Below, piece after piece: positions 4,718-36,575 of a stretch of 36,760 bases of DNA. The number at the start of each line of letters is the position of its first letter. Position 1 is the stretch's first letter. Under the pieces are notes generated by a model. The model worked only from the letters and a program-made list of their open reading frames with translations. It ran no database searches and had not been told where the DNA came from. The DNA comes from a virus, in IMG/VR virus record IMGVR_UViG_3300002821_000001. One strand, 5' to 3'. The position numbers were made by a program, and so were the translations under genes.

Positions 4718-5691
4718 AGATACAATTAGACGACAGAATTATTGGGAGTGATGCGTTTCTATCTTTATCACACACCGCACAATGCCTATACTTTGCTTTA
4801 TTTAGGGCAAGAGATAACGATGGTGTTGTTAATAAAACTAAAAGTGTGATGATGGCAACAAGTCGTGAAGATGGTAAAGATGTGGAGTTGTGCCAAGAAA
4901 AACACTTACAAGAGTTAATAAATGGCTCGTTCTTGATTGACTTTCGTAAAAGTGATGGTGTGGTTATTATTAAACACCATTGGTTACACACCACTTATAA
5001 AAGCGATAGATATATTCCATCGACTTATGATTGCGTAAATCGTTTGTTTGTTAAATCAAATGGCGTTTATACCGAAGATGAAACACAAGGAAAACCATAC
5101 TTGGAAAATAAATGGAAAAATAATGGAAAAAATCTGGAAGAAAATAGTTTCCCCAATCTAATCAAATCTAATCTAATTAAATCTAATATATTAAAGAATA
5201 AGAATATTGCCGATAAAAAAATCGGCGATGTGGTTGTTTTGGTGAGTGAAGATGATAAAACAACTAAAAGCGATGATAAAAAACCTAGTGATTTGTTTGC
5301 TGAACGATTTGAAATGTATTGGAAGGCGTATAACAATCATAAGGGAAGTAAAGCCAAAGCAAAACAATGGTTTATCACGCATAAAGTTAGTGAAGAAACC
5401 TTGAATAGTATGCTACAAGCGATTAAAATTGATGATGTAGCACGAGATGAAGCACAAATAATGAGTGAGTTTTACCCACAAAAACCATATGCTACTACTT
5501 GGTTAAATCAAAAGCGTTGGGAAACACTACTCGAAAACGTGCCACAAAGCCACCCACAAGGCACGAAAGGAAGTTCAAGGGAAAACATACCACCCCAAGA
5601 CCAATCGTCGCCTACAAGCCAAGCAAATGGCGAAATAGGCGATATAGAGAAACTTGTTGCCGAGTTTGAAGCGAGCAAGAAAGGAAAATAG
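4714..5691 (+). CDS. putative phage replisome organizer / replication initiator
   Basis: The N-terminal region resembles the phage replisome-organizer N-domain. The C-terminal F.RFE.YWKAYNNHKGSKAKAKQWF motif is common in phage replication proteins. There are internal iterons in the low-complexity linker. Confidence 0.5.
   Translation: MKIQLDDRIIGSDAFLSLSHTAQCLYFALFRARDNDGVVNKTKSVMMATSREDGKDVELCQEKHLQELINGSFLIDFRKSDGVVIIKHHWLHTTYKSDRYIPSTYDCVNRLFVKSNGVYTEDETQGKPYLENKWKNNGKNLEENSFPNLIKSNLIKSNILKNKNIADKKIGDVVVLVSEDDKTTKSDDKKPSDLFAERFEMYWKAYNNHKGSKAKAKQWFITHKVSEETLNSMLQAIKIDDVARDEAQIMSEFYPQKPYATTWLNQKRWETLLENVPQSHPQGTKGSSRENIPPQDQSSPTSQANGEIGDIEKLVAEFEASKKGK
5155..5226. repeat. candidate origin of replication inside the initiator gene: 15-bp iterons plus an AT-rich inverted repeat
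   Basis: Iterons aatctaatcaaatct (5155..5169) and aatctaattaaatct (5170..5184). Inverted repeat gccgat-aaaaaa-atcggc (5209..5226). AATGGAAAAA occurs twice just upstream (about 5111..5130). Confidence 0.4.
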
Positions 5692-6152: not shown

Positions 6153-7544
6153 GTGATAGAACAATTAAGCATTTGGGAAGATTTAATACCTTTTTATAAA
6201 ATTGAAAAGCCGATAAGGTTAATTGAATTATTTGCTGGTATAGGTTCACAGCGCCAAGCGTTGAAAAATCTAGGGGTTGAAATCAATCGCTCAACAATTT
6301 GCGAGTGGCAAGTTAATTCTATTCAAACATACAATGATATACACATTAGAGATTACAAAGATTATTCACAAGGAAAAGATAAAGATTGGTTGATTGAGTT
6401 TTTAGCAAACAAAGGAGTTTCGATTGATTACAATTCACCAATGACGAAACAACAGTTATCACGAAAAGGCGAAAGTTGGTTAAGAAACACTTACAATAAC
6501 ATAATCGCTACAAATAACATTGTTAATATAATGAGTGCTAAAGGCGAAGATTTAGATATTATCAATACTAACAAATACGATTACATTATGACATATTCAT
6601 TTCCTTGCCAAGATTTAAGTTTGGCTGGCAAAGGTGGTGGTATGGGTAGAGATGGCGGAACTAGGAGTGGTTTGTTATGGCAAGTTGAGAGATTACTAAA
6701 AGAAACAAAAGAGTTACCACAAATACTTTTAATGGAAAATGTGCCTGAAGTTATTGGAACGAACAATATAAAGCATTTTCAAGAGTGGGAATTGTTTTTA
6801 AGGCAATTAGGGTATAGCAACTATTGTGAAGTGCTTAATGCCAAAGATTACGGAATACCACAAAATCGTAATCGCTGTTTTATGGTTTCTATCTTGGGCG
6901 ATTACCTATATCGCTTTCCGCAAAAACAAGAGTTAGAATTACTATTGGAAGATATGCGCGAAGAAGAAGTTGACGAGAAATATTTTTTATCAAAACGACT
7001 TAAAGAAGGGTTTATGACAAACCCTAAAAGTGGATACAAGAGAAAAGAACAGTTTGTTAATGGGCTTTTAAGCCCTAACATTTTTGGAATAGCGCACGCC
7101 ATAACAACAAAGTCGGGAACTCGTCCTAGCGAGAACTATTTATTGGATGGCGACACTAATTTCAAACAACTAATGTGCGAAAAGTTAATTAGAGAAAATA
7201 AAGTCCAAGCATATGATGTTATACGCCATTCATACACTAAAAGCAGAATGAATGGCAAAATGAATGATATACAAGAAAACAATACTTCACCCACAATAGA
7301 CACAAGAGCAGATTGTTTGGGTGTGGTGGTTAATGAGAAGCAAAGCAAGATGATGCAATTACGTATACGCAAACTAACACCAAAAGAGTGTTGGCGGCTA
7401 ATGGGTTTCAAAGATGAGCAATTTGAATTAGCACAAGTTCATCAAAGCAACTCAACACTATATCATCAAGCCGGAGATAGCATTGTAGTTAATGTATTAG
7501 AAACAATATTAAAACCACTTATAAAAGAAAGAAAAGGGGAATAG
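6153..7544 (+). CDS. DNA (cytosine-5) methyltransferase, orphan (GTG start)
   Basis: Motif I LFAGIGS, motif IV SFPCQDLS, motif VI MENVPEV, motif VIII QNRNRCF, motif X AGDSIVVNVL. No adjacent restriction endonuclease is recognisable. Confidence 0.92.
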   Translation: MIEQLSIWEDLIPFYKIEKPIRLIELFAGIGSQRQALKNLGVEINRSTICEWQVNSIQTYNDIHIRDYKDYSQGKDKDWLIEFLANKGVSIDYNSPMTKQQLSRKGESWLRNTYNNIIATNNIVNIMSAKGEDLDIINTNKYDYIMTYSFPCQDLSLAGKGGGMGRDGGTRSGLLWQVERLLKETKELPQILLMENVPEVIGTNNIKHFQEWELFLRQLGYSNYCEVLNAKDYGIPQNRNRCFMVSILGDYLYRFPQKQELELLLEDMREEEVDEKYFLSKRLKEGFMTNPKSGYKRKEQFVNGLLSPNIFGIAHAITTKSGTRPSENYLLDGDTNFKQLMCEKLIRENKVQAYDVIRHSYTKSRMNGKMNDIQENNTSPTIDTRADCLGVVVNEKQSKMMQLRIRKLTPKECWRLMGFKDEQFELAQVHQSNSTLYHQAGDSIVVNVLETILKPLIKERKGE

Positions 7545-10091: not shown

Positions 10092-10571
10092 ATGAAAGCA
10101 AAATGTATGCGTTGTGGTAACGAAATGGAAATAGGACCAAAAGTTACCCCACTTTATGTTTGTGGTATTTGTGGTGACGAAATGAAGGTGACGCCATCTG
10201 TTGCCCCCATTACTAATGCGAACATTCAAGAGTGGAAAGAGAGTTCTAAAATGGATTTAACAATCAATGGGTTTCGTTGGTTAATTAACGAAGTGGCACA
10301 AAAAGATATGCCAAACCAACCAAACGATGACGAGATTGTGGCGTTGGGACGAACTTATACGGCATCAAATCATATCTATATGAATAAAGAGTTGTCGCAT
10401 AAGGTGTTTTACAACACGCTAATACATGAATTAACACACGCATTTATATCGTCTTATGGTTTCGCCCAAGTTGATTTAAGTGCCGAAGTAATGTGCGATT
10501 TTATGGGTTGTTATGCCGAACAAATTGTTACTATTGCTAATGATTATATGAAACAAAGAAAAGGGGAATGA
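10092..10571 (+). CDS. zinc-ribbon plus HExxH putative metallopeptidase-like protein
   Basis: N-terminal CMRCG...CGICG zinc ribbon. LIHELTHAF HExxH motif. Confidence 0.55.
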   Translation: MKAKCMRCGNEMEIGPKVTPLYVCGICGDEMKVTPSVAPITNANIQEWKESSKMDLTINGFRWLINEVAQKDMPNQPNDDEIVALGRTYTASNHIYMNKELSHKVFYNTLIHELTHAFISSYGFAQVDLSAEVMCDFMGCYAEQIVTIANDYMKQRKGE

Positions 10572-10574
10572 ATT

Positions 10575-10664
10575 ATGAAAAGAGAAAAATTAGAAAGTTT
10601 TATTGGGAAGAAAGTTGAAGTGAGTTTTAATGTTCCGTCTGAAATGGAAGGAGAAAAGGAATGA
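10575..10664 (+). CDS. possible micro-ORF (29 aa)
   Basis: AAAAGGGGAA RBS 5 nt upstream. Stop overlaps the next ATG (ATGA). Confidence 0.3.
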   Translation: MKREKLESFIGKKVEVSFNVPSEMEGEKE

Positions 10665-11107
10665 CAAAAGTAATCACAAAATTAATGAATAAGATTTGTG
10701 AGATGGAGTTTCCGTCATTTTATGTGTATGACTTCATTAGCAACGATAAGGAGTTAATGCCACTTAATAATTCGCATAACTTTTTATGGTATTTGGCAAC
10801 AGATATACATTATCACACATTAGAAACAACATTAGAAGAAGCAATATTAAGCGCTTGTAGTTATGCTTATTGGTCTAAATGCGAATACGAGCATTGGGTT
10901 GATGGAAATAAGATTAAAGAAGACGGTTATTACGAGCAATTTATTCGATGGGCTTATGATGATGAAAACCTTGATTGGTATAGTTGTAAAGACAAAGAGC
11001 CGATTGGTTTAAGAACTTGGTTGCAAAATCACGCTTTAACTAAAATGTGGGAAAACGCAAGAGCAAAAGCATTAAAGAAAATTGAAAAGGAAAAAGGGGG
11101 GAAATAA
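10661..11107 (+). CDS. hypothetical protein (148 aa)
   Basis: GGAGAAAAGGA RBS, operon context. Confidence 0.6.
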   Translation: MTKVITKLMNKICEMEFPSFYVYDFISNDKELMPLNNSHNFLWYLATDIHYHTLETTLEEAILSACSYAYWSKCEYEHWVDGNKIKEDGYYEQFIRWAYDDENLDWYSCKDKEPIGLRTWLQNHALTKMWENARAKALKKIEKEKGGK

Positions 11108-11532
11108 TGGAAATTAAGTTTGTAGTAATTGGAGAGCCATTTGGCAAGAAACGACCACGAGCAAGGGTTATCGGCAAACATGCTTCAGTTTATAATGACC
11201 CAGCCAATCAAAATTACGAGTTAAAAGTAGTCAATGCGTTTAATCAAGTGTATCATGGCGAATACCCGATGTTTGACGAAAAAGCGTTTGTAAGAGCGGG
11301 CATTAGAGCCACATACACGATACCAAAGTCATTTAGTAAAAAGAATAGAACATTGGCGTTGCTTGGCTATCTTAAACCCACAAAGAAGCCCGATTTAGAT
11401 AATATCGCGAAGACGATTTTAGATGGGCTTAACGGGTTTGCTTATCACGATGACGCACAAGTTGTTACATTGTATATCGAAAAACAATATGGCGAAAACG
11501 CACAAGTAGAAATTACATTGGAGATGATTTAA
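11107..11532 (+). CDS. rusA: RusA-family Holliday junction resolvase
   Basis: GKKRPR near the N-terminus and KPDLDNIAKTILDGLNGFAYHDDAQV, the RusA catalytic signature. Confidence 0.88.
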   Translation: MEIKFVVIGEPFGKKRPRARVIGKHASVYNDPANQNYELKVVNAFNQVYHGEYPMFDEKAFVRAGIRATYTIPKSFSKKNRTLALLGYLKPTKKPDLDNIAKTILDGLNGFAYHDDAQVVTLYIEKQYGENAQVEITLEMI

Positions 11533-11720
11533 TGACAGCACAACGCAAAGCATTTATTAAATCAATGTATAAAGACATTAGCGATAAAGTATTGTTAAAA
11601 GAATATAAGAACATTAAGTCGTTGTCTTGTATATCGTTGATTGCGGAACAAGAGTATAAGTTGGCATTGGAAGTATTGGTTGAATTATTACAAGAACGCA
11701 ACTTAGAAATACCAAAGTAA
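11532..11720 (+). CDS. hypothetical protein (62 aa)
   Basis: TAATG-coupled ORF. Confidence 0.5.
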   Translation: MTAQRKAFIKSMYKDISDKVLLKEYKNIKSLSCISLIAEQEYKLALEVLVELLQERNLEIPK

Positions 11721-11831
11721 AGGGGAAAGCAAACGAAAACAAAAAACAATTCAGGTTAAGCAATCGTTGTCTATCACGTCTTGTATAACGTTTTGTTTAA
11801 TAGTAAAATAAAAAGAAAGGAGAATAAAACA

Positions 11832-12011
11832 ATGGAAGAAAAAAAGTATCGATTTGAAATTACGGAGAATGAAGCAAACATTGTGTTAGCAGCATTAAGC
11901 GAATTACCATTTAAGGTATCATCGCAACTGATTGTCAAATTACAATCACAAGCACAAACACAAAACAAAGTCGAAGTAGTCGAAAAAGAAAAGACAGCGA
12001 AAAAGTCCTAA
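11832..12011 (+). CDS. hypothetical protein (59 aa)
   Basis: AAAGGAGAA RBS before ATG 11832. The track ORF starts further upstream without an RBS. Confidence 0.55.
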   Translation: MEEKKYRFEITENEANIVLAALSELPFKVSSQLIVKLQSQAQTQNKVEVVEKEKTAKKS

Positions 12012-12121
12012 TGGAAAACGAACTCACTAGACGAGAAAAGTTATTTGTATTAGTGATATGGTTGATATCGGTATCGGTAATCGTGGCACACATTACTTTG
12101 GGTATATTGGTATTTGCCTAA
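12011..12121 (+). CDS. small single-pass membrane peptide (36 aa)
   Basis: TAATG coupling. MENELTRREKLFVLVIWLISVSVIVAHITLGILVFA has a charged N-terminus followed by one TM helix. Confidence 0.4.
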   Translation: MENELTRREKLFVLVIWLISVSVIVAHITLGILVFA

Positions 12122-12124
12122 CGA

Positions 12125-12153
12125 TTGACAATTAGATGACACGGTAGTAATAT
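12125..12153 (+). promoter_or_regulatory. candidate promoter TTGACA-17-TAATAT (a TATAAT is also present at 12151)
   Basis: Consensus -35 at 12125..12130. Two overlapping -10 options. Confidence 0.4.
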
Positions 12154-12159
12154 AATAAT

Positions 12160-12346
12160 GTGGGTTGGCGATTGTCTATTAGACAACAATAAGTCCATTG
12201 CCGAAAAGGAACAAATTGGCAGTCCCACACCAGATATGGTCTTTAAGATATGGTCTTTAAGATAATGGCAGGTAAGATAATGACTTGGCAGTTTAACCGC
12301 CGAGAACAAGGGTTGATGGGTTTGATATCCCTCGCCCTTTTCTTTT
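12160..12346 (+). ncRNA. candidate ncRNA of about 185 nt containing four 14-15-nt tandem repeats and ending in an intrinsic terminator
   Basis: No RBS-supported ORF. Repeats GATATGGTCTTTAA x2, GATAATGGCAGGTAA, GATAATGACTTGGCA (12233..12290). Terminator GGG..GGG-loop-CCC..CCC followed by TTTTCTTTT (12310..12346). Several U.G pairs work only on the + strand. Confidence 0.35.
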
Positions 12347-12370
12347 ATGATATAATGTATTTAACAAATA

Positions 12371-12390
12371 GGGTGGCAACACCCCTTTTT
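12371..12390. terminator. GC hairpin GGGTG-GCAA-CACCC with T-run (+ strand); may act bidirectionally
   Basis: Stem 12371..12375 pairs with 12380..12384, then CTTTTT. On the minus strand it follows the tRNA-like gene (UAUUUGUU tail). Confidence 0.5.
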
Positions 12391-12398
12391 ATTTATCT

Positions 12399-12472
12399 TG
12401 GTGGAGTAGATGAGAATTGAACTCATATTCTTGACACGATTTAATCACATCAAGTCGATACCTTACTACCCC
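12399..12472 (-). ncRNA. 74-nt tRNA-like RNA with alanine identity elements and tmRNA-TLD-like features (no canonical D or anticodon arm)
   Basis: RNA sequence: GGGGUAG-UAA-GGUAUCGAC-UUGAUGUGAU-UAA-AUCGUGUCAA-GAAU-AUGAG-UUCAAUU-CUCAU-CUACUCC-A-CCA. It has a 7-bp acceptor stem with G3.U70, A73, a canonical T-arm and an encoded CCA. The central 11-bp stem has three G.U pairs that are valid only on the minus strand. Confidence 0.55.
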
Positions 12473-12501
12473 ATAATCTTTAATTATAACATAGTATTTT
12501 T

Positions 12502-12666
12502 ATACCCCCCCCTATGTCTAGAAATGTGAAATATCGTTTATTTTTAGGCACATTTTTATCACACATCGTTTTTTATTATACCAAAATAAATAAAAAAAAT
12601 ATGGGATATCTGGGGCTTGGGCGATTTTCACATACAATTTTGTGTCGGCACTCTTGTCAAGTAAAA
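12502..12666. repeat. non-coding element copy A (homologous to 35004..35165)
   Basis: Shared blocks at equal spacing: ATAC(7-8)TAT, a 19-bp identical stretch aaaaaaatatgggatatct (12593..12611 and 35093..35111), atacaatttt, and ttgtcaagtaaaa. Confidence 0.8.
12575..12583 (-). promoter_or_regulatory. extended -10 promoter TGgTATAAT on the minus strand, reading toward the tRNA-like gene
   Basis: Same TGGTATAATAA motif as the + strand promoters at 8734, 16564 and 32701. A/T-rich UP-like tract upstream. About 95 nt upstream of the tRNA-like 5' end. Confidence 0.45.
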
Positions 12667-12744
12667 GACATTTACAAGCACCCTAATAATGGGCTTCAAT
12701 CGTCTTTTTAATTGGCTTGATTGATTGTGATTGATTGCTTTCAT
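12628..12744 (-). CDS. basic micro-ORF A (38 aa)
   Basis: GAGGTG RBS 6 nt before the ATG. MKAINHNQSSQLKRRLKPIIRVLVNVFYLTRVPTQNCM. Stops at the same aligned position as micro-ORF B. Confidence 0.4.
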   Translation of the reverse strand: MKAINHNQSSQLKRRLKPIIRVLVNVFYLTRVPTQNCM

Positions 12745-12825: not shown

Positions 12826-12853
12826 TTGACATCTAAAAAATGGCAATTATAAT
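12826..12853 (+). promoter_or_regulatory. near-consensus promoter TTGACA-16-TATAAT
   Basis: -35 at 12826..12831, -10 at 12848..12853. Confidence 0.7.
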
Positions 12854-12969: not shown

Positions 12970-12993
12970 ATTGACGCTTATATGTTCCCCCGC
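12970..12993. repeat. left arm of a perfect 24-bp inverted repeat (partner 13202..13225); also contains the anti-SD TTCCCC
   Basis: attgacgcttatatgttcccccgc is the exact reverse complement of 13202..13225. TTCCCC (12985..12990) pairs with GGGGAA (12998..13003), which is the SD of the ORF. Confidence 0.9.
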
Positions 12994-13201: not shown

Positions 13202-13225
13202 GCGGGGGAACATATAAGCGTCAAT
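13202..13225. repeat. right arm of the perfect 24-bp inverted repeat
   Basis: gcgggggaacatataagcgtcaat, beginning 8 nt after the ORF stop. Confidence 0.9.
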
Positions 13226-13883: not shown

Positions 13884-15395
13884 GACTCTGTAAGATTAAA
13901 GGTGGAAAAAGGTGGAATGAGTCGTCCACCCCATCAAAACTGTAAGATTTAAAGTGGGGAGCTATGATAGAGAATATCATGGCTCTTTTCTATTGGGTTT
14001 GTTGTTGGAAGAAATAAGCAAAGCGCGTTTTCTAAACCTTTCGAAATTGTGATAACCATAGGCAGCTTTAATGATAGTTTTGAGGTGATTGTTCGCACCT
14101 TCGGCGATGGAGTTAGTGTAGCGACGATGGCCTTGAGAACGGGCGAGACCATTAGCGATTTCAAATCGCCATTTGTGGTAAGTACGACCGACAGAAACGA
14201 GAAGCTCGTTGCCTGAATCAATCAATCGTTTCGAGATGCGAATGATAAAATTAACCGCATCTTCATAATGATGATATGAATCGTATTTATAGAGTTCTTG
14301 GAGAATGTTGTAACCATTCCAAAGCGGTTCACTAATCTTGATGCATTTGAAGACCATGTCGTCATAGTGAACGATCTCTCCGGTGCGTTTATAGGTATAG
14401 AACTTGTCGGGAAGTTTGCTGTAACGACATAGAAATAGCTTCCAATGTGACTTCATGAAATTGTAGATGTTGGTTCCCTTACCAGCGACGTTGTTCATCG
14501 CCCTGGTTCTTAGACGATTGACAGCGTTGGTCAACTGAGTGATGACGTGGAACCAATCGATGACATGCATGGCTTTGGGAAAGTACTGACGGCAGACGGT
14601 GTCATAGGCCTCATACATATCGGAAATGAACACCTTGACGGTTTCCCTCTCTACGAGAGGGATAGAAACGAAATATTCGCGAAGATAGGCCATTTGACGG
14701 TTTCTAAGAATATCGATGATTTCTCCATTGTCGAAGTTGGTTAAAACACAGACATACTTTTGATCAAGCTCATTGCTGAATTTGATTTCATCGACACATA
14801 ACACCCGGCTTAAATAAAGGCGCGGCACATATTTGACATTTTGATCGAACAATTCGATGGTATGCGTTTTGGAAAGATGATACTTACTAGCGATTTGCGT
14901 AAACGTCAATTTCCCCATGAAGTCGTTTACGATTAAATGTCGTTGCAAGTCGGAAATGTGAGATCGTGGAGTGATGCCTCGAAGCGGTGGCGTATAAGTC
15001 GCATGGCAGTCATTGCATTTGAACCGAACTTTCCTGACTCTGAGAATGTCTTGAAGATGATCGTTTTCCGAACAATTAATCGTGACGTAGAAGTAGTTGT
15101 TAACGTAAGCCGATTGTGATTGACATCGGGGACATTTTCGCTGGTCAGTTCGTTGTTCAACTTCATAAACGAATCCGAAATCTGTTTTTATTGGCTCGAA
15201 AGGTACATTGGAGAAATTGTCCGGGTCTAAACCGAACCTTGATAAAAATATGTTAAAATCCATAGTGTCTCCCCTATCTTTTGAATCGTTGACAATTCAA
15301 TTATAGAGGAGACCTTTATATATATAGAAACCATCAAAACTGTAAAGTTTAAGGTGGAGTGATATTTCCTTGTCCACCTTTGTTCTTACAGAACC
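13884..15395 (-). mobile_element. ISL3-family insertion sequence (1512 bp) with imperfect terminal inverted repeats and an 8-bp target duplication TTTTTTTA
   Basis: IRL is GACTCTGTAAGATTAAAGGTGGA. IRR (reverse complement) is GGTTCTGTAAGAACAAAGGTGGA. TTTTTTTA flanks both ends (13876..13883 and 15396..15403). There are extra subterminal copies of the CTGTAAGnnTTAAAGTGG motif at 13939 and 15339. Confidence 0.8.
13977..15263 (-). CDS. ISL3-family DDE transposase
   Basis: N-terminal zinc finger CPRCQS...C..C. LCVDEIKF, ISDMYEAY and IDWFHV motifs. C-terminal NSIAEGANNHLKTIIKAAYGYHNFERFRKRAL, characteristic of ISL3 transposases. Confidence 0.9.
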   Translation of the reverse strand: MDFNIFLSRFGLDPDNFSNVPFEPIKTDFGFVYEVEQRTDQRKCPRCQSQSAYVNNYFYVTINCSENDHLQDILRVRKVRFKCNDCHATYTPPLRGITPRSHISDLQRHLIVNDFMGKLTFTQIASKYHLSKTHTIELFDQNVKYVPRLYLSRVLCVDEIKFSNELDQKYVCVLTNFDNGEIIDILRNRQMAYLREYFVSIPLVERETVKVFISDMYEAYDTVCRQYFPKAMHVIDWFHVITQLTNAVNRLRTRAMNNVAGKGTNIYNFMKSHWKLFLCRYSKLPDKFYTYKRTGEIVHYDDMVFKCIKISEPLWNGYNILQELYKYDSYHHYEDAVNFIIRISKRLIDSGNELLVSVGRTYHKWRFEIANGLARSQGHRRYTNSIAEGANNHLKTIIKAAYGYHNFERFRKRALLISSNNKPNRKEP

Positions 15396-15403
15396 TTTTT
15401 TTA

Positions 15404-16542
15404 TTGGCTTGATAATCACAAACATTGAAAATAACGGGGTATAATAACACTAGGCGACATGCTTTCGTGGCTTGTAGGGGCGTTTATGCGCTTTATTTTT
15501 AAGCAAGACCAAGCCAAAAAGACGAAAAACAAAATGGATCAGCAAAAAAGCACGTTAGCGCCATTTTAAGACGATCGGATAAATAAACATCATTTAATCA
15601 TTTAATCATTTAACGAATTACTTTTTTACAACGATATAATCTTTTATACCGTTTTTTTGTCGTGTCTTAAGTCTTTAAGTCTTTAAGTCTTTTAGTATCA
15701 TTGTTTTAATTCTTATTTAGATTGATTGTATATCTATTATCTTGTTTTAATCTAAATATTACTAATGATTTATTGCTTATCATTTATCCTTTTTAGATTA
15801 ACATCACTTCTTTAATTCTTAATACTTAAGTATTTAAGTCTTAAGTCTTAACGAATTACTACAAGAATAATAATTTAATAACTATGTATTGTATGTTAAG
15901 GCTTGCCATTGACCGATTAGTCAATCGCAGAATTGGTAGATGATGAATAAATAAAAGTAAAAGCGTTTTTTAATGGTGCTGATTAGTGTAATGATTAGTG
16001 TAATTGTTTAATGATGTGATGAATGATTAAAGTATTGAAGTATTAAAGATAAGTATTAAAGATAATTAAAAAGTGATTTAACGTCGTGTGCTGAATGTGC
16101 TAACGATAAAATGAATGGCTAATTGAAGGCGTGAATGGCTAATTGAAGGCGTGAATGACTAATCGCAACATCGTAAACGACACTAACTAATATCATAAAC
16201 AACAATGTAAACATAAATACACTGATATATTAAGTAACAACATAAAGACATTCGCTAATCATCACGCGCGCCAAACACTCGACAATCACACAATCAATCA
16301 TCAATAACAGGCATATATGCTTATTTAGCGTTTTAAGGCACATTAGACAAGAGTTATGTATCGGCATAGTAAACATACCTTGAAATCGTGAACGTTTATG
16401 TATGCTATGTCTATGCGTCATATATGACTATTTACGATGACGGTGGGCGGTATCAACTTTTATGGTTGTCCACATAATGGGGTGGCAGCCCCCTTGACTA
16501 TTAGTAGAATTGATGACCCAAACTATACGAAGGAAAGGTAGG
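15404..16542. repeat. ORF-free, repeat-dense region upstream of terL (candidate packaging-recognition site and/or origin)
   Basis: Repeat families seen: CATTTAAT x3 (15591..15614); GTCTT(T)AA x4 (15664..15695); palindrome AATACTTAAGTATT (15821..15834); TTAACGAATTACT at 15610 and 15848; GATTAGTGTAAT x2 (about 15981..16006); AAGTATTAAAGATA x2 (about 16048..16075); TGAATGnCTAA x4, including 20-bp units x2.5 (16092..16164). Confidence 0.6.
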
Positions 16543-16572
16543 TTGAGAAAGATAAAGGTAACGTGGTATAAT
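16543..16572 (+). promoter_or_regulatory. promoter TTGAGA-18-TGgTATAAT upstream of terL
   Basis: -35 at 16543..16548. Extended -10 at 16564..16572. Confidence 0.5.
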
Positions 16573-16622
16573 AAATAATGAGAAAAAAGGGAAGATGGAA
16601 AGAAAAGAGGGAATGAAAGATA

Positions 16623-28121: not shown

Positions 28122-31100
28122 ATGGGCTTTACGGAAACAAGAGCGTTAGACATATATTACGGAGAAGATAGAAAACCCCGTGATATAAATGGAAAGCAAA
28201 TCGGCTTTATCGGGGAAGATATTAAAGGCGGTCATTTAGCGACACAAATCAATTTTCATTTTGAAGAAGGCGACATTGGCGAACATGGCGCGGTTATTAT
28301 TATCGCAAAACGAGCCGATGGTCAAATGCGTTATGACTTATGCACTAAATCAGGAACAGGAACTTCGGCTTATTATGTTGCCGAATTAAATAATTGGTAT
28401 TTAGAAAAACACGGAACATTAGTGCTTGATGTTAAAGCATACACTAACGATACGACCGCTGCTTATACTATTGTCGATGATGTTTTAACACCAGCAACTG
28501 GAACAAAGATTATCGTTGGAACTACATTTACATTTGATGTTAAATATGCGCCATTACCAAGCACTGCGGTATCGGCAACTGAATTATCAACTATTGACTT
28601 GATTTTAACGGCGGTGCAATCTAAACCTGATTTTCAAGATATTGTAAAAGTAAGTGTTTCATTACCAAGTGATTTAGGCGATACACCTAACGAATATGAT
28701 GGACGATGGTTTTTAATCAATGATGGAAAAAATGGTATTTTTTATTACATTGATGGAGATACCCCCATTGAAGCAAACATTGGCACTACTATTGCTAAGT
28801 TATTAGATTGCGATATTGGTAGTTTGGTCAGTGGTGATGTGTTATCGTGGAATGGAACAAAATGGGTAAATAGCCCAAGATTAACAACTGCCGAAGCAAC
28901 GATTGTTTCAAATACAAGTAGAATTGGTGTTAATGAAGCGTCAATTAGTAATCACGAGGGTAGAATAACAACTGCTGAAGAAACGCTAGAAACACTTGTC
29001 GTTACGGGCGGTATTGAAGTTAATAAGTATGCTACATATGCTGATTTTCCTGCTATAGGTAGCGATTTACGATTATATTTAGCACGAGATACCGATAAAA
29101 TGTATCATTGGGAAACAAGTGCTTATGAAGAAGTATCTAATGATGTAAATATTGATACCGAAACCGATGGTGGCATTGTTTTTTGGAACGCAACATTAGG
29201 TAAAATTGACACTGACGCTAATTTGAAGTTTGATAGTAATGGTTTCGCTACTCCAACAATTAGAACTAATATCATAAAATCCATGACATCAGTAAGCGGT
29301 GTAATAACCATTAATAGTGAAGATAACGTTACATTGATTAAAGGTTTATCTATTGGTGGCGACTTAAATATTGCTGGAGATATTATTCAACAAGGTGCGG
29401 CTTATGAAACACACGCCGAACAAGTTTATACCAAAGATGACACAATCATATTAAGAGATGGCGCAGTTGGTGGTTTAGCAGTTGGCTCTTATGCTGGTTT
29501 AGTCGCAAAATTAGCGGATGGAGTAAATGACGCACATTTAGTTTTTGATGGTAATGGAATTGCTAAAGTCGGTGATTTTGGCTCATTACAAACATTAGCA
29601 ACACGTCAAGATACGCCAATATCAAACGGAATTCCTTATTGGAACGCAAGTGCTTATCGGTTTGATACAAACGAAACTATCAAAATAGATAATGTTGTTG
29701 TTGGTCCTACTTCCGTTACGCTAGATGGTAATATTGCTTTGTTTAACGGAACTACAGGAAAAATACTAAAAGATAGCACGTTGTCAATGTCTAATATTGC
29801 GAAGTTGGAAAATGAATTAATAGTAACTGGAAAGCATAAATATTACCCACTTGTAAAAAATTACGCTGGTAATTTAATCGGTAGTCATCAAACAGCAGTG
29901 TGGAATGGTAGCGATTGGACTGCGACTAATAACTTTGCGTTTGGTTATGCTGCGCTATATAATAACACGGGCGCTAGTTCAAATGCGTTTGGGTATAATG
30001 CGCTATATAATAACACGGGCGCTTATTCAAGTGCGTTTGGGTATAATGCGCTATATAATAACACGGGCGCTAGTTCAAATGCGTTTGGGATGTATGCGCT
30101 ATATAATAACACGGGCGCTAGTTCAAATGCGTTTGGTTATGCTGCGTTACAAAATAACACGGGCGCTTATTCAAGTGCGTTTGGGTATAATGCGCTATAT
30201 AATAACACGGGCGCTAGTTCAAGTGCGTTTGGGATGTATGCGCTATATAATAACACGGGCGCTAGTTCAAATGCGTTTGGTTATGCTGCGCTATATAATA
30301 ACACGGGCGCTAGTTCAAGTGCGTTTGGTTATGCTGCGCTATATAATAACACGGGCGCTAGTTCAAGTGCGTTTGGGTATAATGCGCTATATAATAACAC
30401 GGGCGCTTATTCAAGTGCGTTTGGGTATAATGCGTTAAGATATAATCAATCGTTAAATAATACGGCGATAGGCTATCAAGCAGGAAAAGATTTTTTAGAT
30501 AACATAAGTGGAAATAAAACTTGTGATTATACAGCGATTGACACAACGCTAGAACGAGCAACAATAATTTCACATGGATTTGGCGCAACAAACGATTATG
30601 TCAATATAAAATATGCGTCAACAACGGGAACAGCAATCGGTGGTTTAACGATTGGAAATATTTATCAAGTAAAAATTATAGACGCTAACACAATCGAGTT
30701 TTACGATGGTGGCAGTAAGCGTAATCTAACATCGCAAGGAACAGGAACGCATACATTTACGCCACAATATGCTTATACTAACTTTACTTTGATTGGGGCT
30801 AATACAATTCCGACAGGGTCTAATCGCCTAATTTTAGGCGACAGTAATGTTACTGATATATTTGCTGGACAAAACGGAACTGCAAAAATAAATGCTGGTG
30901 TTTTCGTTTCTAGTGTTGGTGTTGGAACTTCGCCAATGACGATTGCTTCGACAACTTTAGTTAGCAATCTAAACGCCGATTTATTAGACGGAAATGAAGC
31001 AAGCGCGTTTCAACCACTTATTTCAACTGGAACAAATTTACAATACTATCGTGGTGATAAAACATGGGCGACGCTACCGACAACGCTACCTGCAAGTGAT

Positions 31101-33557: not shown

Positions 33558-34079
33558 GTGAAAGACAAAGTTAAAAAAATAAATAAGCCAAAGAAACCAA
33601 AGAAGAAAGTTCAAGTATTAAAGGGAACAGCACAAGCATTAATATATGGAACGCCGATTGCTACACTTGTAGGAATGGGAATTAGAGTATATGTTAACGA
33701 AACGCCAAGTTTAACTTTTTTAGATAACTTTACTTTCAAGTTTTCATTTTGGGCTATTATTGTTGGTCTTATAATCGTTCCCATTTACACGAAATTGTTG
33801 CGAGTAAAATTGCGTGATAAAATGCTTTTACAAGAGGGAAGAGATGGTTATGTAGCACCTAGATTTAGATTACTACAAACAGCGCAATATAGTATTTCTA
33901 TGTTGTTATTAATTGCGATTGTATTTATATTACGCATACTTGCTAGTAATGAAATGTTGACATTCTTATATATTAGTGGTGGTAGTGGTATCGTTGGCTA
34001 TACAATGCTTACAATAGATAGTATTAATAAGCAATCTAATAAAGAGTTAGAAGAAATAGAAAAAATACAAATAAAATAA
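33558..34079 (+). CDS. polytopic membrane protein (about 4 TM, GTG start, poly-Lys N-terminus)
   Basis: Four hydrophobic segments. KKINKPKKPKKK N-terminus. Confidence 0.5.
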   Translation: MKDKVKKINKPKKPKKKVQVLKGTAQALIYGTPIATLVGMGIRVYVNETPSLTFLDNFTFKFSFWAIIVGLIIVPIYTKLLRVKLRDKMLLQEGRDGYVAPRFRLLQTAQYSISMLLLIAIVFILRILASNEMLTFLYISGGSGIVGYTMLTIDSINKQSNKELEEIEKIQIK

Positions 34080-34094
34080 AGGGGAATAATTAAA

Positions 34095-35003
34095 ATGAAA
34101 AAACAAGGAATATTACCATACATTAGTGGTCTTATCACGCTTATAACGATTTTAACTTACGTTGGAATATTATTCATAAATGGGATTTATTTTAGTGCCG
34201 AGCAACAACCAATCGTCATATTTATAAGCGGAATTACAATACTTTCAATCTTTGCTAATATGGTGTCATATTGGTCTTTAGTCGAGCAATTAGTATTAGA
34301 TAGTGATGAGATTGTAAAAGCATTTAATGAGTATGATGATTATGTTAGAGATAATATTAAAGATACTTATGATTTTGATAAGGTAATAAATGAAGAATAT
34401 AATGCGTCAAAACGAGAACAAAAGCACCAACAAATTTATAATAAACTATTGTCAAAAGATTTTTTATTAAAGCATTACAATCGCGTTATCAATCGAAATA
34501 TGCCTAAAATAAGATTTGTTGAAACAAGCAAATATTATAAAAACAAAGAAAAAGTTTTAATTAGTCTTAAATCAAAAGTAGAACAATATATGTTTAAGAA
34601 AGATAGACGAGAGCAATTTTTGAATATGGTTTCCATAACTAAGTCTATTCGTTATCATCGCGTATCACCACATAATATTTTCACTAGAAATAGCACTAAA
34701 AATGACTTTGCTGACGGAATTAATAAGTTAGGTCGTCATCGTAATTTATTTTTAATCACTAGAACAATATCTGCAACTGCTACAACTTTCTTCCCAATCA
34801 TCTTTGTATTTTCAATTACTGGGCAAATAAATTCATCGTATATCGTTCCTATTAGTTTAGGTCTTGTTGCCGTTATAATTACAATATTACAAACAATTAT
34901 ATTTTCAAAACGATTTACAAAAAATGATACGATTGATTATCTTAATGATTTATTTTATATTTGTAAATGGTATGTTTCTTTTAAGTTAAAAGATAAAAAA
35001 TAA
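34095..35003 (+). CDS. membrane protein with 2 TM - soluble basic domain of about 150 aa - 2 TM architecture (302 aa)
   Basis: AAGGGGAA RBS. Hydrophobic pairs at both termini. Confidence 0.6.
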   Translation: MKKQGILPYISGLITLITILTYVGILFINGIYFSAEQQPIVIFISGITILSIFANMVSYWSLVEQLVLDSDEIVKAFNEYDDYVRDNIKDTYDFDKVINEEYNASKREQKHQQIYNKLLSKDFLLKHYNRVINRNMPKIRFVETSKYYKNKEKVLISLKSKVEQYMFKKDRREQFLNMVSITKSIRYHRVSPHNIFTRNSTKNDFADGINKLGRHRNLFLITRTISATATTFFPIIFVFSITGQINSSYIVPISLGLVAVIITILQTIIFSKRFTKNDTIDYLNDLFYICKWYVSFKLKDKK

Positions 35004-35165
35004 TACCCCCCCTATATTCACAACTTATTAAAATTAAAATATTTTTATGAGTAAATAACTTCATTACATTTTTCCTACAAGCATTATCAAAGAAAAAAAT
35101 ATGGGATATCTAGGCTTAAGTTAAATTCTATATACAATTTTTGAAATTGACATTGTCAAGTAAAA
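35004..35165. repeat. non-coding element copy B (homologous to 12502..12666)
   Basis: See copy A. Begins directly after the 34095..35003 stop codon. Confidence 0.8.
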
Positions 35166-35250
35166 CCACTTGACATGCCCTTTGATGACGTGCTTTTCTC
35201 GTTTGTAGACTGTGCCAGGTTGAGCGTTGTATTGCTCGTATTTGTTCCAT
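35128..35250 (-). CDS. basic micro-ORF B (40 aa)
   Basis: AAAGGGGTG RBS 3-5 nt before the ATG. MEQIRAIQRSTWHSLQTRKARHQRACQVVLLDNVNFKNCI. C-terminal NC(I/M)-stop aligns with micro-ORF A. Confidence 0.4.
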   Translation of the reverse strand: MEQIRAIQRSTWHSLQTRKARHQRACQVVLLDNVNFKNCI

Positions 35251-35316: not shown

Positions 35317-35345
35317 TTGTATGCTTACTAATCATTTGTTATAAT
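35317..35345 (+). promoter_or_regulatory. promoter TTGTAT-17-TGtTATAAT
   Basis: -35 at 35317..35322. Extended -10 at 35337..35345. Confidence 0.6.
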
Positions 35346-35351
35346 ACTAAT

Positions 35352-35438
35352 AGCCAATGGTGGTGCGTTTATCCCCCTTTCCGCATCAACCCCTTCACAT
35401 TGGCGAGAGCGGCTTTGAGAAATCATTGTCGCTTTTTT
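35352..35438 (+). ncRNA. candidate sRNA or leader of about 87 nt with two exposed C-rich motifs and an intrinsic terminator
   Basis: P1 is gccaatg (35353..35359) pairing with cattggc (35398..35404). An inner hairpin GGUGCG/CGCAUC has a CCCCC loop, and a second CCCC motif follows. The terminator is AGCGGC...GUCGCU followed by U6 (35408..35438). Confidence 0.45.
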
Positions 35439-35458
35439 ATTTTGTTGCCCGTTGCCTA

Positions 35459-35487
35459 TTGACATTATTATTTTGGCATTGTAATAT
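35459..35487 (+). promoter_or_regulatory. promoter TTGACA-17-TAATAT for the repeat-protein gene
   Basis: Consensus -35 at 35459..35464, -10 at 35482..35487. Confidence 0.6.
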
Positions 35488-35519: not shown

Positions 35520-36575
35520 ATGAACAAATACATTAAGGGCTATAAGGCGTTTGGTAAAGGGTTTATTTGCCAAGATAAGCAATACGAAATTGGAAAGACA
35601 TATGTTGAAATGGGAACTAAAATGTGCGAAAAGGGTTTAATGCACTTTTGCAAAAAACCATTCGATGTTTTCAATTATTATCCGCTAATTGACAATAAAG
35701 GCAACATAACTGAATTTGCTCGTGTAAAATCATTGGCAACTGAAACAATGGAAGAAGAAGATAAATGTGGTAGTCGTGAATTAACTATTATTGATAAAAT
35801 CACACTAAAAGATTTAATTGGCGATGAAGTTAAAACCTTATTAAAATTATGTAAAAATGCTACTACGGGTTATGGGGCTCACTCGGCTACTACGGGTAAT
35901 TTGGCTCATTCGGCTACTACGGGTGTTGGGGCTCACTCCGCTACTACGGGCGATATGGCTCACTCCGTTACAACGGGTTATATGGCTCATTCGGCTACTA
36001 CGGGTGTTGGGGCTCACTCGGCTACTACGGGTTATGGGGCTCACTCGGTAACAACGGGTGATTGGGCTCACTCGGTAACAACGGGTGATTGGGCTCACTC
36101 GGTAACAACGGGTGATTGGGCTCACTCGGTAACAACGGGTGATTGGGCTCGTTCCGCTACTACGGGTAATGAGGCTCACTCGGCTACTACGGGTTATATG
36201 GCTCGTTCCGCTACTACGGGTTATATGGCTCATTCGGCTACTACGGGTTATATGGCTCGTTCCGCTACTACGGGTAATGAGGCTCACTCGGTAACAACGG
36301 GTGATTGGGCTCACTCGGTAACAACGGGTGATTGGGCTCACTCCGCTACTACGGGTTATGGGGCTCACTCGGTAACAACGGGTAAAAACGCTATTGCTTG
36401 TGCGTTGGGTAATGGTAGTAAAGCCAAAGCGTCAAAAGGGGCTTGGATTGTTTTAACCGAATATGATAAAAATGGTAATATATTATCGGTTCAAACCATA
36501 AAAGTTGATGATGACAAAATCAAAGCAAACACTTATTACACGCTTAAAAACGGGCAATTTGTGATTGCGGAATAA
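35520..36575 (+). CDS. repeat protein: N-terminal domain of about 115 aa, 20 tandem 9-aa repeats (HS[AV]TTGxxA), and a C-terminal domain of about 60 aa
   Basis: AAAAGGGAGGG RBS before ATG 35520. The N-terminal KGYKAF..GF.C.D.QYE.GKTY......C..G.HFC..P.DV..YY module resembles one I recall at the start of other solenoid-repeat hypothetical proteins. Confidence 0.7.
   Translation: MNKYIKGYKAFGKGFICQDKQYEIGKTYVEMGTKMCEKGLMHFCKKPFDVFNYYPLIDNKGNITEFARVKSLATETMEEEDKCGSRELTIIDKITLKDLIGDEVKTLLKLCKNATTGYGAHSATTGNLAHSATTGVGAHSATTGDMAHSVTTGYMAHSATTGVGAHSATTGYGAHSVTTGDWAHSVTTGDWAHSVTTGDWAHSVTTGDWARSATTGNEAHSATTGYMARSATTGYMAHSATTGYMARSATTGNEAHSVTTGDWAHSVTTGDWAHSATTGYGAHSVTTGKNAIACALGNGSKAKASKGAWIVLTEYDKNGNILSVQTIKVDDDKIKANTYYTLKNGQFVIAE
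35859..36397 (+). repeat. about 20 tandem 27-bp repeats
   Basis: The unit gctactacgggtNNNNNNgctcactcg recurs. Variation is concentrated in the two codons after GGT. Confidence 0.9.

Follow-up and report, generated by a model that had tools for sequence, protein, structure and literature searches.

Two similar non-coding sequences, hereafter referred to as copies A and B, occur in the same phage genome, raising the question of whether they are one element and, if so, what that element does. The window (the whole stretch of 36,760 nucleotides analysed here) is a complete siphovirus-like genome with nearly all of its genes on the plus strand. Its first 25 bases are identical to its last 25, so the contig is circular, with a length of 36,735 bp (36.7 kb). 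The separation of 22.5 kb given in an earlier note on this DNA is therefore correct in one direction only, the distance the other way round the circle being 14.2 kb.

Two copies of one cassette

Local alignment of A with B gave a score of 55, as against a mean of 19.2 (sd 2.9) and a maximum of 32 for a null of 644 other 220-nt windows of the same genome, taken on both strands; the blastn E-value was 1.6e-5. The description of the two as diverged copies was thus borne out, the similarity being well above chance. All the shared blocks listed earlier were located in both copies: the C-runs, the 19-mer AAAAAAATATGGGATATCT, ATACAATTTT (12632-12641 in A, 35132-35141 in B) and TTGTCAAGTAAAA (12654-12666 and 35153-35165). 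With up to three mismatches allowed, AAAAAAATATGGGATATCT matched only twice in the window, once in each copy (0.06 matches expected). Weaker similarity runs on to about position 12714 in A and 35215 in B. A and B are real copies of a non-coding cassette of about 140 bases that recurs between gene blocks in a few uncultured phages. Their parts and neighbours are listed in Table 1.

Table 1. Cassette copies A and B, their parts and the adjoining elements, with positions in the window.
Feature	Position	Strand	Remarks
Copy A, family-wide core	12496..12641	+	A/T run, ATA, C8, spacer, box, linker, TACAATTTT
C8 run, copy A	12505..12512	+	
Spacer, copy A	12513..12592	+	length kept across the family, sequence identity at chance level
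Invariant box, copy A	12593..12611	+	AAAAAAATATGGGATATCT; family core A5-7 TATGGGATAT
TACAATTT, copy A	12633..12640	+	-10-like hexamer and T-run, invariant in 10/10 copies
Extension of copy A	12642..12714	+	window-type copies only; TTGTCAAGTAAAA, hairpin, then GTCTTTTTAATT
Copy B, core	34998..35141	+	begins at the stop codon (35001-35003) of a 302-codon gene
C7 run, copy B	35006..35012	+	
Invariant box, copy B	35093..35111	+	AAAAAAATATGGGATATCT
TACAATTT, copy B	35133..35140	+	
Extension of copy B	35142..35245	+	window-type; palindrome TGTCAAGT-N6-ACTTGACA at 35154-35175
Terminator-like hairpin in extension of copy B	35221-35238	+	
tmRNA-like gene adjoining copy A	12399..12472	-	74 nt; TGTTATAAT promoter 12491-12483, terminator 12385-12370
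Perfect TTGACA-16-TATAAT promoter	12826..12853	+	about 190 nt downstream of copy A; kept in L013 and L027
Neighbour of copy B	35337..35445	+	TGTTATAAT promoter, C-rich small RNA (about 90 nt), strong terminator
Early promoter after the copy B neighbour RNA	35459-35487	+	

A family with fixed geometry

The suggestion that A and B represent a recurrent module was confirmed: ten copies are present in the window and in related metagenomic phages, namely A, B, the L017 variant, T (in L031-L035), L037, L046, L038a, L038b, L039 and L047. All ten lie on the gene strand, and they occupy three kinds of intergenic site. Their common layout consists of a C-run of 4-11 bases, a spacer of fixed length, the box A5-7 TATGGGATAT and then TACAATTT, with each box present once per copy. 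Counted from the first C of the run, the ATATGGG of the box comes after 92-94 nt in every copy, longer C-runs being balanced by shorter spacers. The step from ATATGGG on to TACAAT measures 34 nt in eight copies; of the other two, one has 33 nt and the other (T) 37. The box holds the near-palindrome ATAT-GGG-ATAT. A model extending from the box to TACAAT recovered A and B with nhmmer E-values of 1.1e-13 and 9.1e-12, respectively, and no further copies were found elsewhere in the window or in the 12 kb of L037.

Anchored pairwise identity among eight independent copies was 1.00 for TACAATTT and 0.79 for the box (0.39 when shuffled), as against 0.38 for the spacer (0.35 when shuffled), with the flanks at chance level. 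The cassette thus looks like a protein-binding DNA site, one of the possibilities raised in the earlier note, with three invariant boxes at fixed spacing and sequence of chance identity between them. The spacer is 71-84% A+T. Intrinsic DNA bending was considered and rejected, its A/T tracts having no 10-11 bp periodicity.

The reach of this family is narrow. A blastn search of both regions against 50,697 phage records, a check proposed earlier, returned nothing, and recurrence was seen instead in the related metagenomic phages. In IMG/VR, the 19-mer recovered one true relative and six chance matches, and the family patterns recovered the same single relative only; pairs of blocks had no match in GTDB genomes and one chance match in JGI metagenomes. 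As the searches returned one relative, the cassette is rare in these collections, although the patterns used for genomes and metagenomes were stricter than the later family consensus and could miss copies in host genomes. The closest cultured relative of the phage group is no nearer than 31% terminase identity, and the host probably belongs to the Bacilli, among their wall-less or low-GC members.

Coding capacity, RNA structure and C-run length

All six frames of copy B are broken. ORFs starting at the box ATG range from 5 to 103 codons, with differing frames at TACAAT, and no frame is conserved among the copies, in agreement with the original view of the element as non-coding. A short ORF beginning MGYLGL in A and B at first resembled a case of synonymous change, but it has no ribosome-binding site, its fifth residue changes from Gly to Arg in L017 (MGYLRL) and the frames differ across the family; a coding function was rejected.

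The alternative suggestion of an RNA module did not hold either. Rfam yielded no match at its gathering thresholds, and allowing E-values up to 10 brought up nothing of relevance within the cassette. The consensus fold of the copies had an energy of -0.6 (plus strand) or -0.9 kcal/mol (minus strand), as against a single-sequence mean of about -19, and single-sequence z-scores were insignificant. The sole shared pairing, of the C-run with GGG, shows no variation and hence no compensatory changes, and there is no conserved secondary structure on either strand. A folded RNA was accordingly discarded as a candidate. The hairpin in the extension of copy A, which belongs to window-type copies only, folds at -15.9 kcal/mol (z -1.9).

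The C-tracts had been judged long enough to be prone to slippage, and their length does differ between near-identical strains: C8 in the window, L013 and L027 versus C7 in L017 and L028, and C11 in L037 versus C10 in L046. Read on the minus strand, the C-run of copy A fills the -35 position of the TGTTATAAT promoter of the tmRNA-like gene, an overlap with a promoter found in this copy only. Phase-variable promoters with homopolymer tracts include those of porA and opc in Neisseria and vlp in Mycoplasma. The cassette resembles them in that its G/C run of 7-11 varies among near-identical strains and, in copy A, overlaps the -35 position of a promoter. Unlike those tracts, however, a change in run length is offset here by the spacer, such that the total stays at 92-94 nt, and in most copies the run lies outside any promoter; a switching role here is putative.

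Genomic sites, neighbours and recombination

Copies A and T are located before the late block, and B and the B-type copies after it. At B, L039 and L047, the C-run begins at most 2 nt from the stop codon of the last late gene. T is carried by a relative with a 79%-identical terminase and lies directly before the large terminase gene, ending 6 nt before a TATAAT homologous to that of the window's own terminase promoter. It is the only copy adjacent to terminase, A and B being 4 kb and 18 kb, respectively, from the window terminase gene. A and B each lie 190-205 nt upstream of strong plus-strand promoters.

The gene beside copy A, previously noted as tRNA-like, does have a tRNA-like domain. The description can be refined, as its 74 nt match only the two ends of the tmRNA model, and thus the tRNA-like domain only; ARAGORN detected no tRNA. 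Copy A abuts the TGTTATAAT promoter of this gene; that promoter is not part of the shared cassette, and B has no equivalent of it. The cassette and the tmRNA-like gene are near-invariant in five strain variants, while their flanks vary; the exceptions, in L017 and L028, are the C-run and a small number of substitutions. Insertions adjoin copy A, and the insertion sequence had no match in a comparison with plasmids.

There is evidence of recombination between copies. L017 is a chimera with a B-type TGAAATTGACC within an otherwise A-type copy, TGTGTCGG is common to L038b and A, and L038 carries a tandem pair of cassettes 267 nt apart. In L040-L045, the post-late site is empty and the downstream units are retained. 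Terminal inverted repeats and target duplications, as expected of a miniature transposon, were not seen in a repeat search or in a comparison of filled with empty sites, which are too diverged for exact junctions. The repeats of diversity-generating retroelements were also rejected as a model, with no reverse transcriptase found and mismatches that are not adenine-specific.

A possible regulatory boundary on the plus strand

Any explanation has to accommodate a family of non-coding cassettes, free of conserved RNA structure and fixed in geometry, that always face the way the genes do, vary in site and recombine with each other. We tentatively favour, with a probability of about 35%, a DNA-level regulatory boundary cassette that combines an activator-type plus-strand promoter with an architectural upstream arm and is moved by recombination; the promoter activity, the factor that binds and the part played by the arm are our inferences. 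This lineage-specific cassette of about 140 bp would act as double-stranded DNA, not as protein or folded RNA, and would form a regulatory boundary facing the same way as the genes. TACAATTT would be the -10 element of a promoter with no -35 hexamer: TACAAT followed by TT is invariant on the plus strand in all ten copies, the -35 position reads CTGGGG, CTAGGC, CAGGGG and similar in the alignment, and neither a -35 hexamer nor a TG extension before TACAAT was found in the aligned copies. The box A5-7 TATGGGATAT would then lie at about -52 to -36, with its near-palindrome centred at about -41, and could be the binding site of a transcription factor from the phage or the host. The upstream arm, of fixed length and ending in the C-run at about -140, is proposed to be an architectural part of the same nucleoprotein complex, which would make its length important but not its sequence. 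A slip in the C-run would displace whatever lies to its left by one base; in copy A, the tmRNA-like gene's promoter is what lies there. As copies have identical boxes, cassettes could recombine, carrying themselves and the DNA between them among intergenic sites, and such exchange would account for the chimera of A and B, the tandem pair in L038, the site without a cassette and the relative's pre-terminase copy.

Several observations bear against a simple promoter. A conserved element some 140 bp before the -10, fixed within 2 bp, would be unusual. In T, the distance is 37 rather than 34 and another -10 follows immediately, so TACAAT may not be a functional -10 in that copy, the only one with GTGAAACA repeats. 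The downstream genes of the window have their own sigma-A-type promoters (12826, 16543, 35337 and 35459); as these exist and the empty site keeps its downstream units, the cassette is not tied to a particular operon. No candidate activator was found among about 35 proteins searched with Pfam, PHROGs and NCBIfam (no sigma-like, ArpU, RinA or Q-like protein), and none of the operator consensus sequences compared by eye (DnaA box, dif, CodY, cre, Rex, sigma-B, sigma-E and parS half-sites) fits the invariant boxes.

Late promoters that have a good -10, no -35 and an upstream activator site are known from Gram-positive siphoviruses (TP901-1 Plate with Alt; the RinA, ArpU and LtrC family). The cassette shares the good -10, the missing -35 and a conserved upstream site, and A and T are located before packaging genes. 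It differs from these activator-dependent promoters in that no Alt, RinA or ArpU homologue was detected among the phage proteins, most copies follow the late operon and the window terminase gene has its own sigma-A-type promoter.

A second point of comparison is provided by the PeSLs (promoter-early stem-loops) of T4-type phages, regulatory cassettes present in repeated copies through which modules are shuffled (Arbiol et al. 2010, PMC2839356). Each PeSL consists of a full sigma-70 promoter and a terminator stem-loop, with many per genome (PMC2839356; Comeau et al. 2014, PMC4122927). Like PeSLs, the cassette is short, non-coding, intergenic and repeated within one phage genome; all its copies lie in the direction of transcription with a promoter-like element; and it borders variable DNA, with copies that recombine (the L017 chimera, the tandem pair and the empty site). 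Unlike PeSLs, it is present in only one or two copies per genome, lacks both a -35 hexamer and a conserved stem-loop, and has a long upstream arm of fixed length ending in a C-run. A hairpin and U-run follow the window-type copies only, and there is no sequence similarity between the two families.

Alternative readings of the cassette

An unlikely but arguable alternative is a cis-acting replication element to which a phage protein would bind, acting as a second origin or as a polar fork barrier. SPP1 offers a precedent, with two similarly organised origins, oriL and oriR, about 13 kb apart on the circular map, one of them intergenic in the late region. It has been proposed that forks stall on protein bound at oriR and that this sets off a change to the synthesis of concatemers, whose processing involves an exonuclease, an annealase and a Holliday-junction resolvase (PMC6316719). 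A and B are likewise non-coding, kilobases apart on a circular map transcribed from one strand and AT-rich at their centre, and the window phage has an SPP1-type portal and a similar recombination and replication gene set (a YqaJ-type exonuclease, RecT, RusA and a DnaD-like loader or initiator). The AT-rich spacer could be an unwinding region and the boxes protein sites, and any intergenic site would serve, fitting a location that varies while orientation is constant. Unlike in SPP1 origins, however, the binding box is not repeated within a copy, and both copies lie outside the initiator gene, within which there are iteron-like tandem repeats and a hairpin at 5102-5290, the usual place for an origin. 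Nor do the boxes co-vary with the initiator: similarity between the initiator-like proteins of the window and L037 is confined to the C-terminal 134 residues (51% identity), the N-terminal halves being unrelated, yet the box is identical in the two phages. GC skew, positive throughout, is therefore uninformative as an origin marker.

Much the same low likelihood attaches to a polar, position-independent cis-acting genome site, of which each phage of the group would need at least one copy. Movement among the sites of A, B and T, with at least one copy per genome, would be the signature of something essential but relocatable. The 92-94 bp could correspond to DNA wrapped on a phage protein, with the slippage-prone C-run as a tuner; one possibility would be a site for replication priming or fork arrest, assembled where the box and the C/G-run lie. 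In mitochondrial CSB II, a G-run fixes R-loop primers.

The positions of the copies on either side of the late block, together with the C-runs almost touching the last late stop codon, also raise the possibility of a transcription boundary in a narrower sense: a factor-dependent terminator (Rho loading) or an insulator or roadblock separating early from late transcription. Rho would load on the plus-strand RNA at the C-run and the spacer with its excess of C over G, whereas a roadblock would be formed by a protein on the boxes. Poly(C) is the classical best activator of Rho. The window has no strong intrinsic terminator after the last late gene, and the post-late spacers contain 1-8 G versus 8-14 C, although the coding strand is G-rich overall. 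This reading is nevertheless fairly improbable, as the T spacer, with 18 G versus 5 C, keeps the same geometry, and Rho loading requires neither invariant flanking boxes nor an exact length. Rho is missing from many wall-less relatives of the Bacilli, and the host may be without it. PeSLs join a terminator and a promoter (PMC4122927). The cassette has no conserved stem-loop.

The earlier note had read the element on the minus strand, as a promoter and leader driving the tmRNA-like gene at copy A; this now appears quite improbable, as does its extension to copy B, where an antisense RNA would run into the 3' end of the 302-codon gene and the G-run would act as a slippage switch. It is consistent with this reading that the G-run of copy A falls exactly at the -35 of the TGTTATAAT promoter, which precedes the 5' end of the tmRNA-like gene by 11 nt, that TATWAW directly follows the G-run in seven of nine distinct copies, that run length varies between near-identical strains and that the cassette and the tmRNA-like gene are conserved together between variable flanks. 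However, only the window-type copies (A, B and L017) have TTGACA; the other seven (T, L037, L038a, L038b, L039, L046 and L047) lack it. The -10-like hexamers, said to be at the homologous place in A and B, are not: relative to ATATGGG, they lie at -24..-19 in A (ATTATA) and at -16..-11 in B (ATTATC), an offset of 8 nt. The minus-strand pair of copy A is TTGACA-17-TTGTAT, in which TTGTAT lacks the A at position 2; a promoter consensus scan did not list it and found minus-strand sites at chance level only. No invariant box matches a minus-strand -35 or -10, nothing RNA-like was found on the minus strand beyond B and the other post-late copies, and the tmRNA-like gene has a complete extended -10 promoter outside the shared part.

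A functionless relic of duplication, or a selfish repeat spread through recombination, would account for the presence/absence polymorphism, the variable sites, the tandem pair and the chimeras. It is very improbable: the three boxes are invariant and their spacing is kept within 2 nt, while the neighbouring protein is only 62-73% identical and the spacer is at chance level, and such conservation amid diverged surroundings requires purifying selection. Terminal inverted repeats and target duplications were not seen either, the sites compared being too diverged for exact junctions.

Least probable of all is an accessory packaging site, at which terminase would bind beside cos or pac, because copies 22.5 and 14.2 kb apart, or 267 nt apart in the L038 tandem pair, are not a single site next to terminase and would give unpackageable pieces, most copies lie at the far end of the late operon, and a better candidate exists in the 25-mer GATGACGGTGGGCGGTATCAACTTTT (16437-16461), which lies 160 nt upstream of the terminase gene, is kept even in a phage with only 48% terminase identity and is expected just before the point at which three of the five contigs of the 79% relative start, within 7 nt of each other. 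Its attractions were that the relative's T cassette has a cos-like region on one side and the large terminase gene on the other, that GTGRAACA occurs three times in the T spacer and once more, as the variant GTGAAAACA, between the box and TACAAT, these repeats resembling the GGCGTGAATGG repeats upstream of the window terminase gene (16118-16165), and that the ATA-C(n)-TAT flanks have two-fold symmetry.

Implications

If the cassette were merely a recombination scar, the finding would be an ordinary one. If it is instead a regulatory boundary cassette, as we tentatively propose, this phage group would mark the borders of its late block with a compact and unusually rigid DNA cassette, which would provide a handle for finding a phage regulator and help to predict transcription units in related metagenomic phages. 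Because the copies recombine, the cassette would also trace module exchange. It is adjoined by two small RNA genes of an unusual kind, one for a tmRNA of which only the tRNA-like domain remains and the other for a C-rich RNA, and both may depend on the cassette for their expression.

Copies of the cassette in the window and in related phages

Four ordered blocks had been reported in the earlier note as common to two non-coding stretches lying far apart in the window, and each was present at its place in copies A and B of the cassette. The 19-mer shared by the two copies matched the window exactly twice with up to three mismatches permitted (0.06 matches expected), and the likeness of the copies exceeded chance, with a local alignment score of 55, as against a mean of 19.2 (sd 2.9, maximum 32) for copy A aligned to 644 other windows of the same genome. 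The element recurs in related phages, located via contigs encoding proteins that neighbour the cassette, but nucleotide searches of public collections gave almost nothing. An nhmmer model of the core recovered every copy (E 1e-10 to 1e-15), always on the gene strand, and detected no others elsewhere in the window, nor among 12 kb of early genes of the related phage L037.

Copy A and the adjacent tmRNA-like gene were present in the strain-level relatives L013, L027, L028 and L017. This stretch was unchanged in the five variants, except for C8 vs C7 and a few substitutions (L017, L028); the gene itself was identical in all five, and both flanks of the stretch varied. The C-tract, previously suggested to be slippage-prone, does change in length among close relatives. 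The otherwise A-type copy of L017 carries the B-type TGAAATTGACC between TACAATTTT and TTGTCAAGTAAAA, which shows that sequence has been exchanged between copies A and B. A third kind of copy (T) lies directly upstream of the terminase gene in contigs L031-L035 (terminase 79% identical). As at B, a copy directly follows the homologue of the 302-codon gene (62-73% identity) in L037 (C11), L046 (C10), L039 (C9) and L047 (C8), and L038 has a cassette pair in tandem. Contigs L040-L045 (one phage), which share their source samples with the T-type terminase contigs, have no cassette at this site and retain the downstream small-RNA unit and early promoter.

Anatomy of the cassette

Three features were common to all 10 copies: an A/T run and (A)TA followed by a run of 4-11 C, a box consisting of A5-7 TATGGGATAT, and TACAATTT. 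Measured from the first C, ATATGGG lay 92-94 nt away throughout, longer C-runs being accompanied by shorter spacers (C11 + 83, C9 + 83 or 84, C7 or C8 + 86). ATATGGG and TACAAT were 34 nt apart in eight of the ten copies, the exceptions being L038b (33) and T (37). For eight independent copies anchored on one another, pairwise identity was 1.00 for TACAATTT, 0.79 for the box and 0.38 for the spacer (0.35 when shuffled), with chance-level values in both flanks. The fixed distances, together with the chance-level identity of the spacer, indicate that its length is under selection and its sequence is not. The TTGTCAAGTAAAA block and the sequence 3' of it were limited to window-type copies (A, B and the L017 variant).

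The cassette was correctly described as non-coding: every frame is interrupted, and the ORFs opened by the box ATG (5, 7, 14, 35, 36 and 103 codons) reach TACAAT in differing frames. The cassette, for which an RNA module had also been proposed, is not a folded RNA. Single copies folded no better than shuffled sequences, the consensus fold of the eight anchored copies had energies of -0.6 and -0.9 kcal/mol, as against about -19 for single sequences, no pair varied, and an Rfam search gave no match for the cassette. Nor did the suggested minus-strand promoter survive. Its TTGACA is partnered by TTGTAT, a poor -10, and is missing from seven copies from other phages; the supposedly homologous -10 hexamers lie in registers 8 nt apart in A and B, and a promoter consensus scan returned only chance-level sites in the cassette. 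On the minus strand, the G-run of copy A occupies the -35 position of a distinct promoter, TGTTATAAT, a complete one of the extended -10 type; this promoter is not part of the shared cassette, and B has nothing corresponding to it. As a packaging site, the cassette was rejected because two or tandem cos sites would be incompatible with packaging and a better candidate, a 25-mer, lies 160 nt before the terminase gene.

Small RNA genes adjacent to the copies

The gene next to copy A, initially called tRNA-like, was matched end to end by the Rfam tmRNA model (positions 1 to 374), but with the central 304 positions (tag-coding part, pseudoknots) replaced by 5 nt. The score of 39.1 bits is below the family threshold of 47 (E 4e-14 in a 701-nt search), and ARAGORN did not detect the gene. 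It retains an acceptor stem with G3-U70, UCGAC, an 11-bp hairpin, the T-arm and an encoded ACCA. A phage tmRNA reduced in this way to the tRNA-like domain might be chargeable and might act as an SmpB-binding decoy.

The small-RNA unit downstream of copy B is conserved also in L037, L038, L039, L043-L045 and L046. Its RNA (fold of -31 kcal/mol, z -3.65) has a hairpin loop, UUUAUCCCCCUUUCC (ACCUCCUUUC in L037), that resembles the 3' end of 16S rRNA and complements the phage's AAAGGGG ribosome-binding sites (e.g. 7524-7543, 10551-10570, 34069-34088).

Genome setting and host

The window begins and ends with the same 25 bases (repeat family D18) and so represents a complete, circular contig, 36,735 bp in length, with almost every gene on the + strand. 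No integrase was found in the window, and a small terminase gene was likewise not recognised. In the cultured phage that comes closest, terminase identity is only 31%. The transposase has 89% identity to one from a genome bin of Candidatus Izemoplasmatales and about 80% to others from Bacilli bins, and the source samples include hydrocarbon-associated metagenomes; on these grounds, a low-GC, possibly wall-less bacterium of the Bacilli is the probable host. Homologues of the 302-codon gene formed nine clusters (62-98% identity). Several related contigs end at the in-frame tandem repeats of the DUF7666 or 1352-codon tail gene. In L037, the C5 methylase gene (10343-12356) has an intein containing a LAGLIDADG endonuclease domain.

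Features of the window
Feature	Position	Strand	Remarks
Other identified genes	window		YqaJ-type exonuclease, DUF1351, RecT, YopX, DnaD-like loader or initiator, C5 methylase, RusA
Repeats in initiator-like gene	5102-5290		11-nt TGGAAAAATAA, 15-nt AATCTAATYAAATCT and 21-nt tandem units, hairpin; junction of variable N-terminal and conserved C-terminal halves; likely replication origin
Variable segment (~360 bp)	12030-12391	minus (ORF)	63-codon ORF, bidirectional terminator 12371-12384; ~60 bp instead in L013, L016, L020, L027, L028
tmRNA-like gene, 74 nt	12399-12472	minus	promoter 12491-12483, 11 nt upstream; terminator 12385-12370
Copy A	12496-12641	+	weaker similarity to ~12714
600-bp segment	12861-13467		70-codon ORF between perfect 24-nt inverted repeats (12970-12993, 13202-13225); wholly missing from L013; perhaps a small cassette that moves or inverts
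ISL3-family insertion sequence	~13884-15394	minus (transposase)	transposase 13977-15263; flanking 35-nt repeats direct, not inverted (13931-13965, 15331-15365); missing from relative L003/L013
Non-coding 1.2-kb stretch	15395-16622		upstream of large terminase gene; GGCGTGAATGGCTAATTGAA x3 at 16118-16165, TAAGTCTT at 15660-15700 and 15820-15850; with the 25-mer, probably the packaging site
25-mer GATGACGGTGGGCGGTATCAACTTTT	16437-16461		kept even in phage with 48% terminase identity; in the 79% relative, 3/5 contigs start within 7 nt of one another, just past its expected position
Late genes	window		large terminase, SPP1-type portal, capsid and tail genes, 302-codon last late gene
In-frame long tandem repeats	35781-36491, 29840-30559		27-nt units in DUF7666 gene, 48-nt units in 1352-codon tail gene
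302-codon gene	34095-35003		weak matches: N-terminal part, mobilome CxxC...CxxC protein; C-terminal part, SLATT two-helix membrane domain; may be a defence or exclusion gene, not a lysis gene
Copy B	34998-35141	+	weaker similarity to ~35215
Small transcription unit	35337-35445	+	between copy B and early promoter; TGTTATAAT, ~90-nt RNA, strong terminator

Possible function of the cassette

TACAAT on the + strand comes close to a consensus -10 and is the sole promoter-like element that never varies. With this hexamer set at -12 to -7, the box spans roughly -52 to -36 and its ATAT-GGG-ATAT near-palindrome is centred at about -41; no -35 hexamer was found upstream of TACAAT. An activator-dependent layout is known for late promoters of Gram-positive siphoviruses, and the cassette has the same arrangement of box and -10 without a -35. 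The T copy ends 6 nt before a TATAAT homologous to that of the window's own terminase promoter, the 5' leaders of the two promoters having GGGAAGATGGRAA in common, and in that phage the T cassette makes up the upstream half of the terminase promoter. Strong + strand promoters lie 190-205 nt downstream of copies A and B, and a hairpin and U-run come after TACAAT in window-type copies. We tentatively interpret the cassette as a gene-facing regulatory boundary module acting at the DNA level, with a probability of roughly one in three. The fixed-length upstream arm, with the C-run at its end, would belong to the same nucleoprotein complex, and the identical boxes would make the cassette a substrate for recombination. 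The nearest described analogues in behaviour are the promoter-early stem-loop (PeSL) cassettes of T4-type phages (PMC2839356, PMC4122927). Our estimate is this low because no regulator was found among the phage proteins, the downstream units carry their own promoters and can persist at a site from which the cassette is missing, the box-to-TACAAT distance differs in T, and a promoter would not usually have a conserved element at a set position near -140.

The gene set, the presence of two copies and their freedom of location would also agree with a replication element in the manner of SPP1 oriL/oriR (PMC6316719). Nevertheless, no copy has any box more than once, two phages have the same box despite initiator-like proteins with nothing beyond the C-terminal 134 residues in common, and iteron-like repeats are found inside the initiator gene. 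A transcription boundary, serving as a Rho loading site or roadblock, would account for the cassette at both ends of the late block and for the excess of C over G in the spacers of post-late copies, but the T spacer is G-rich and such sites do not need invariant boxes. A packaging accessory, a relic or a non-coding RNA is less likely.

In the collections searched, this sequence family is new, with a layout unlike that of described cassettes; the kind of element, a recombining repeated intergenic regulatory module, is familiar. The element is well founded and specific to this lineage, somewhat odd but not surprising, and the two small RNA genes beside its copies may be of greater interest than the cassette itself.
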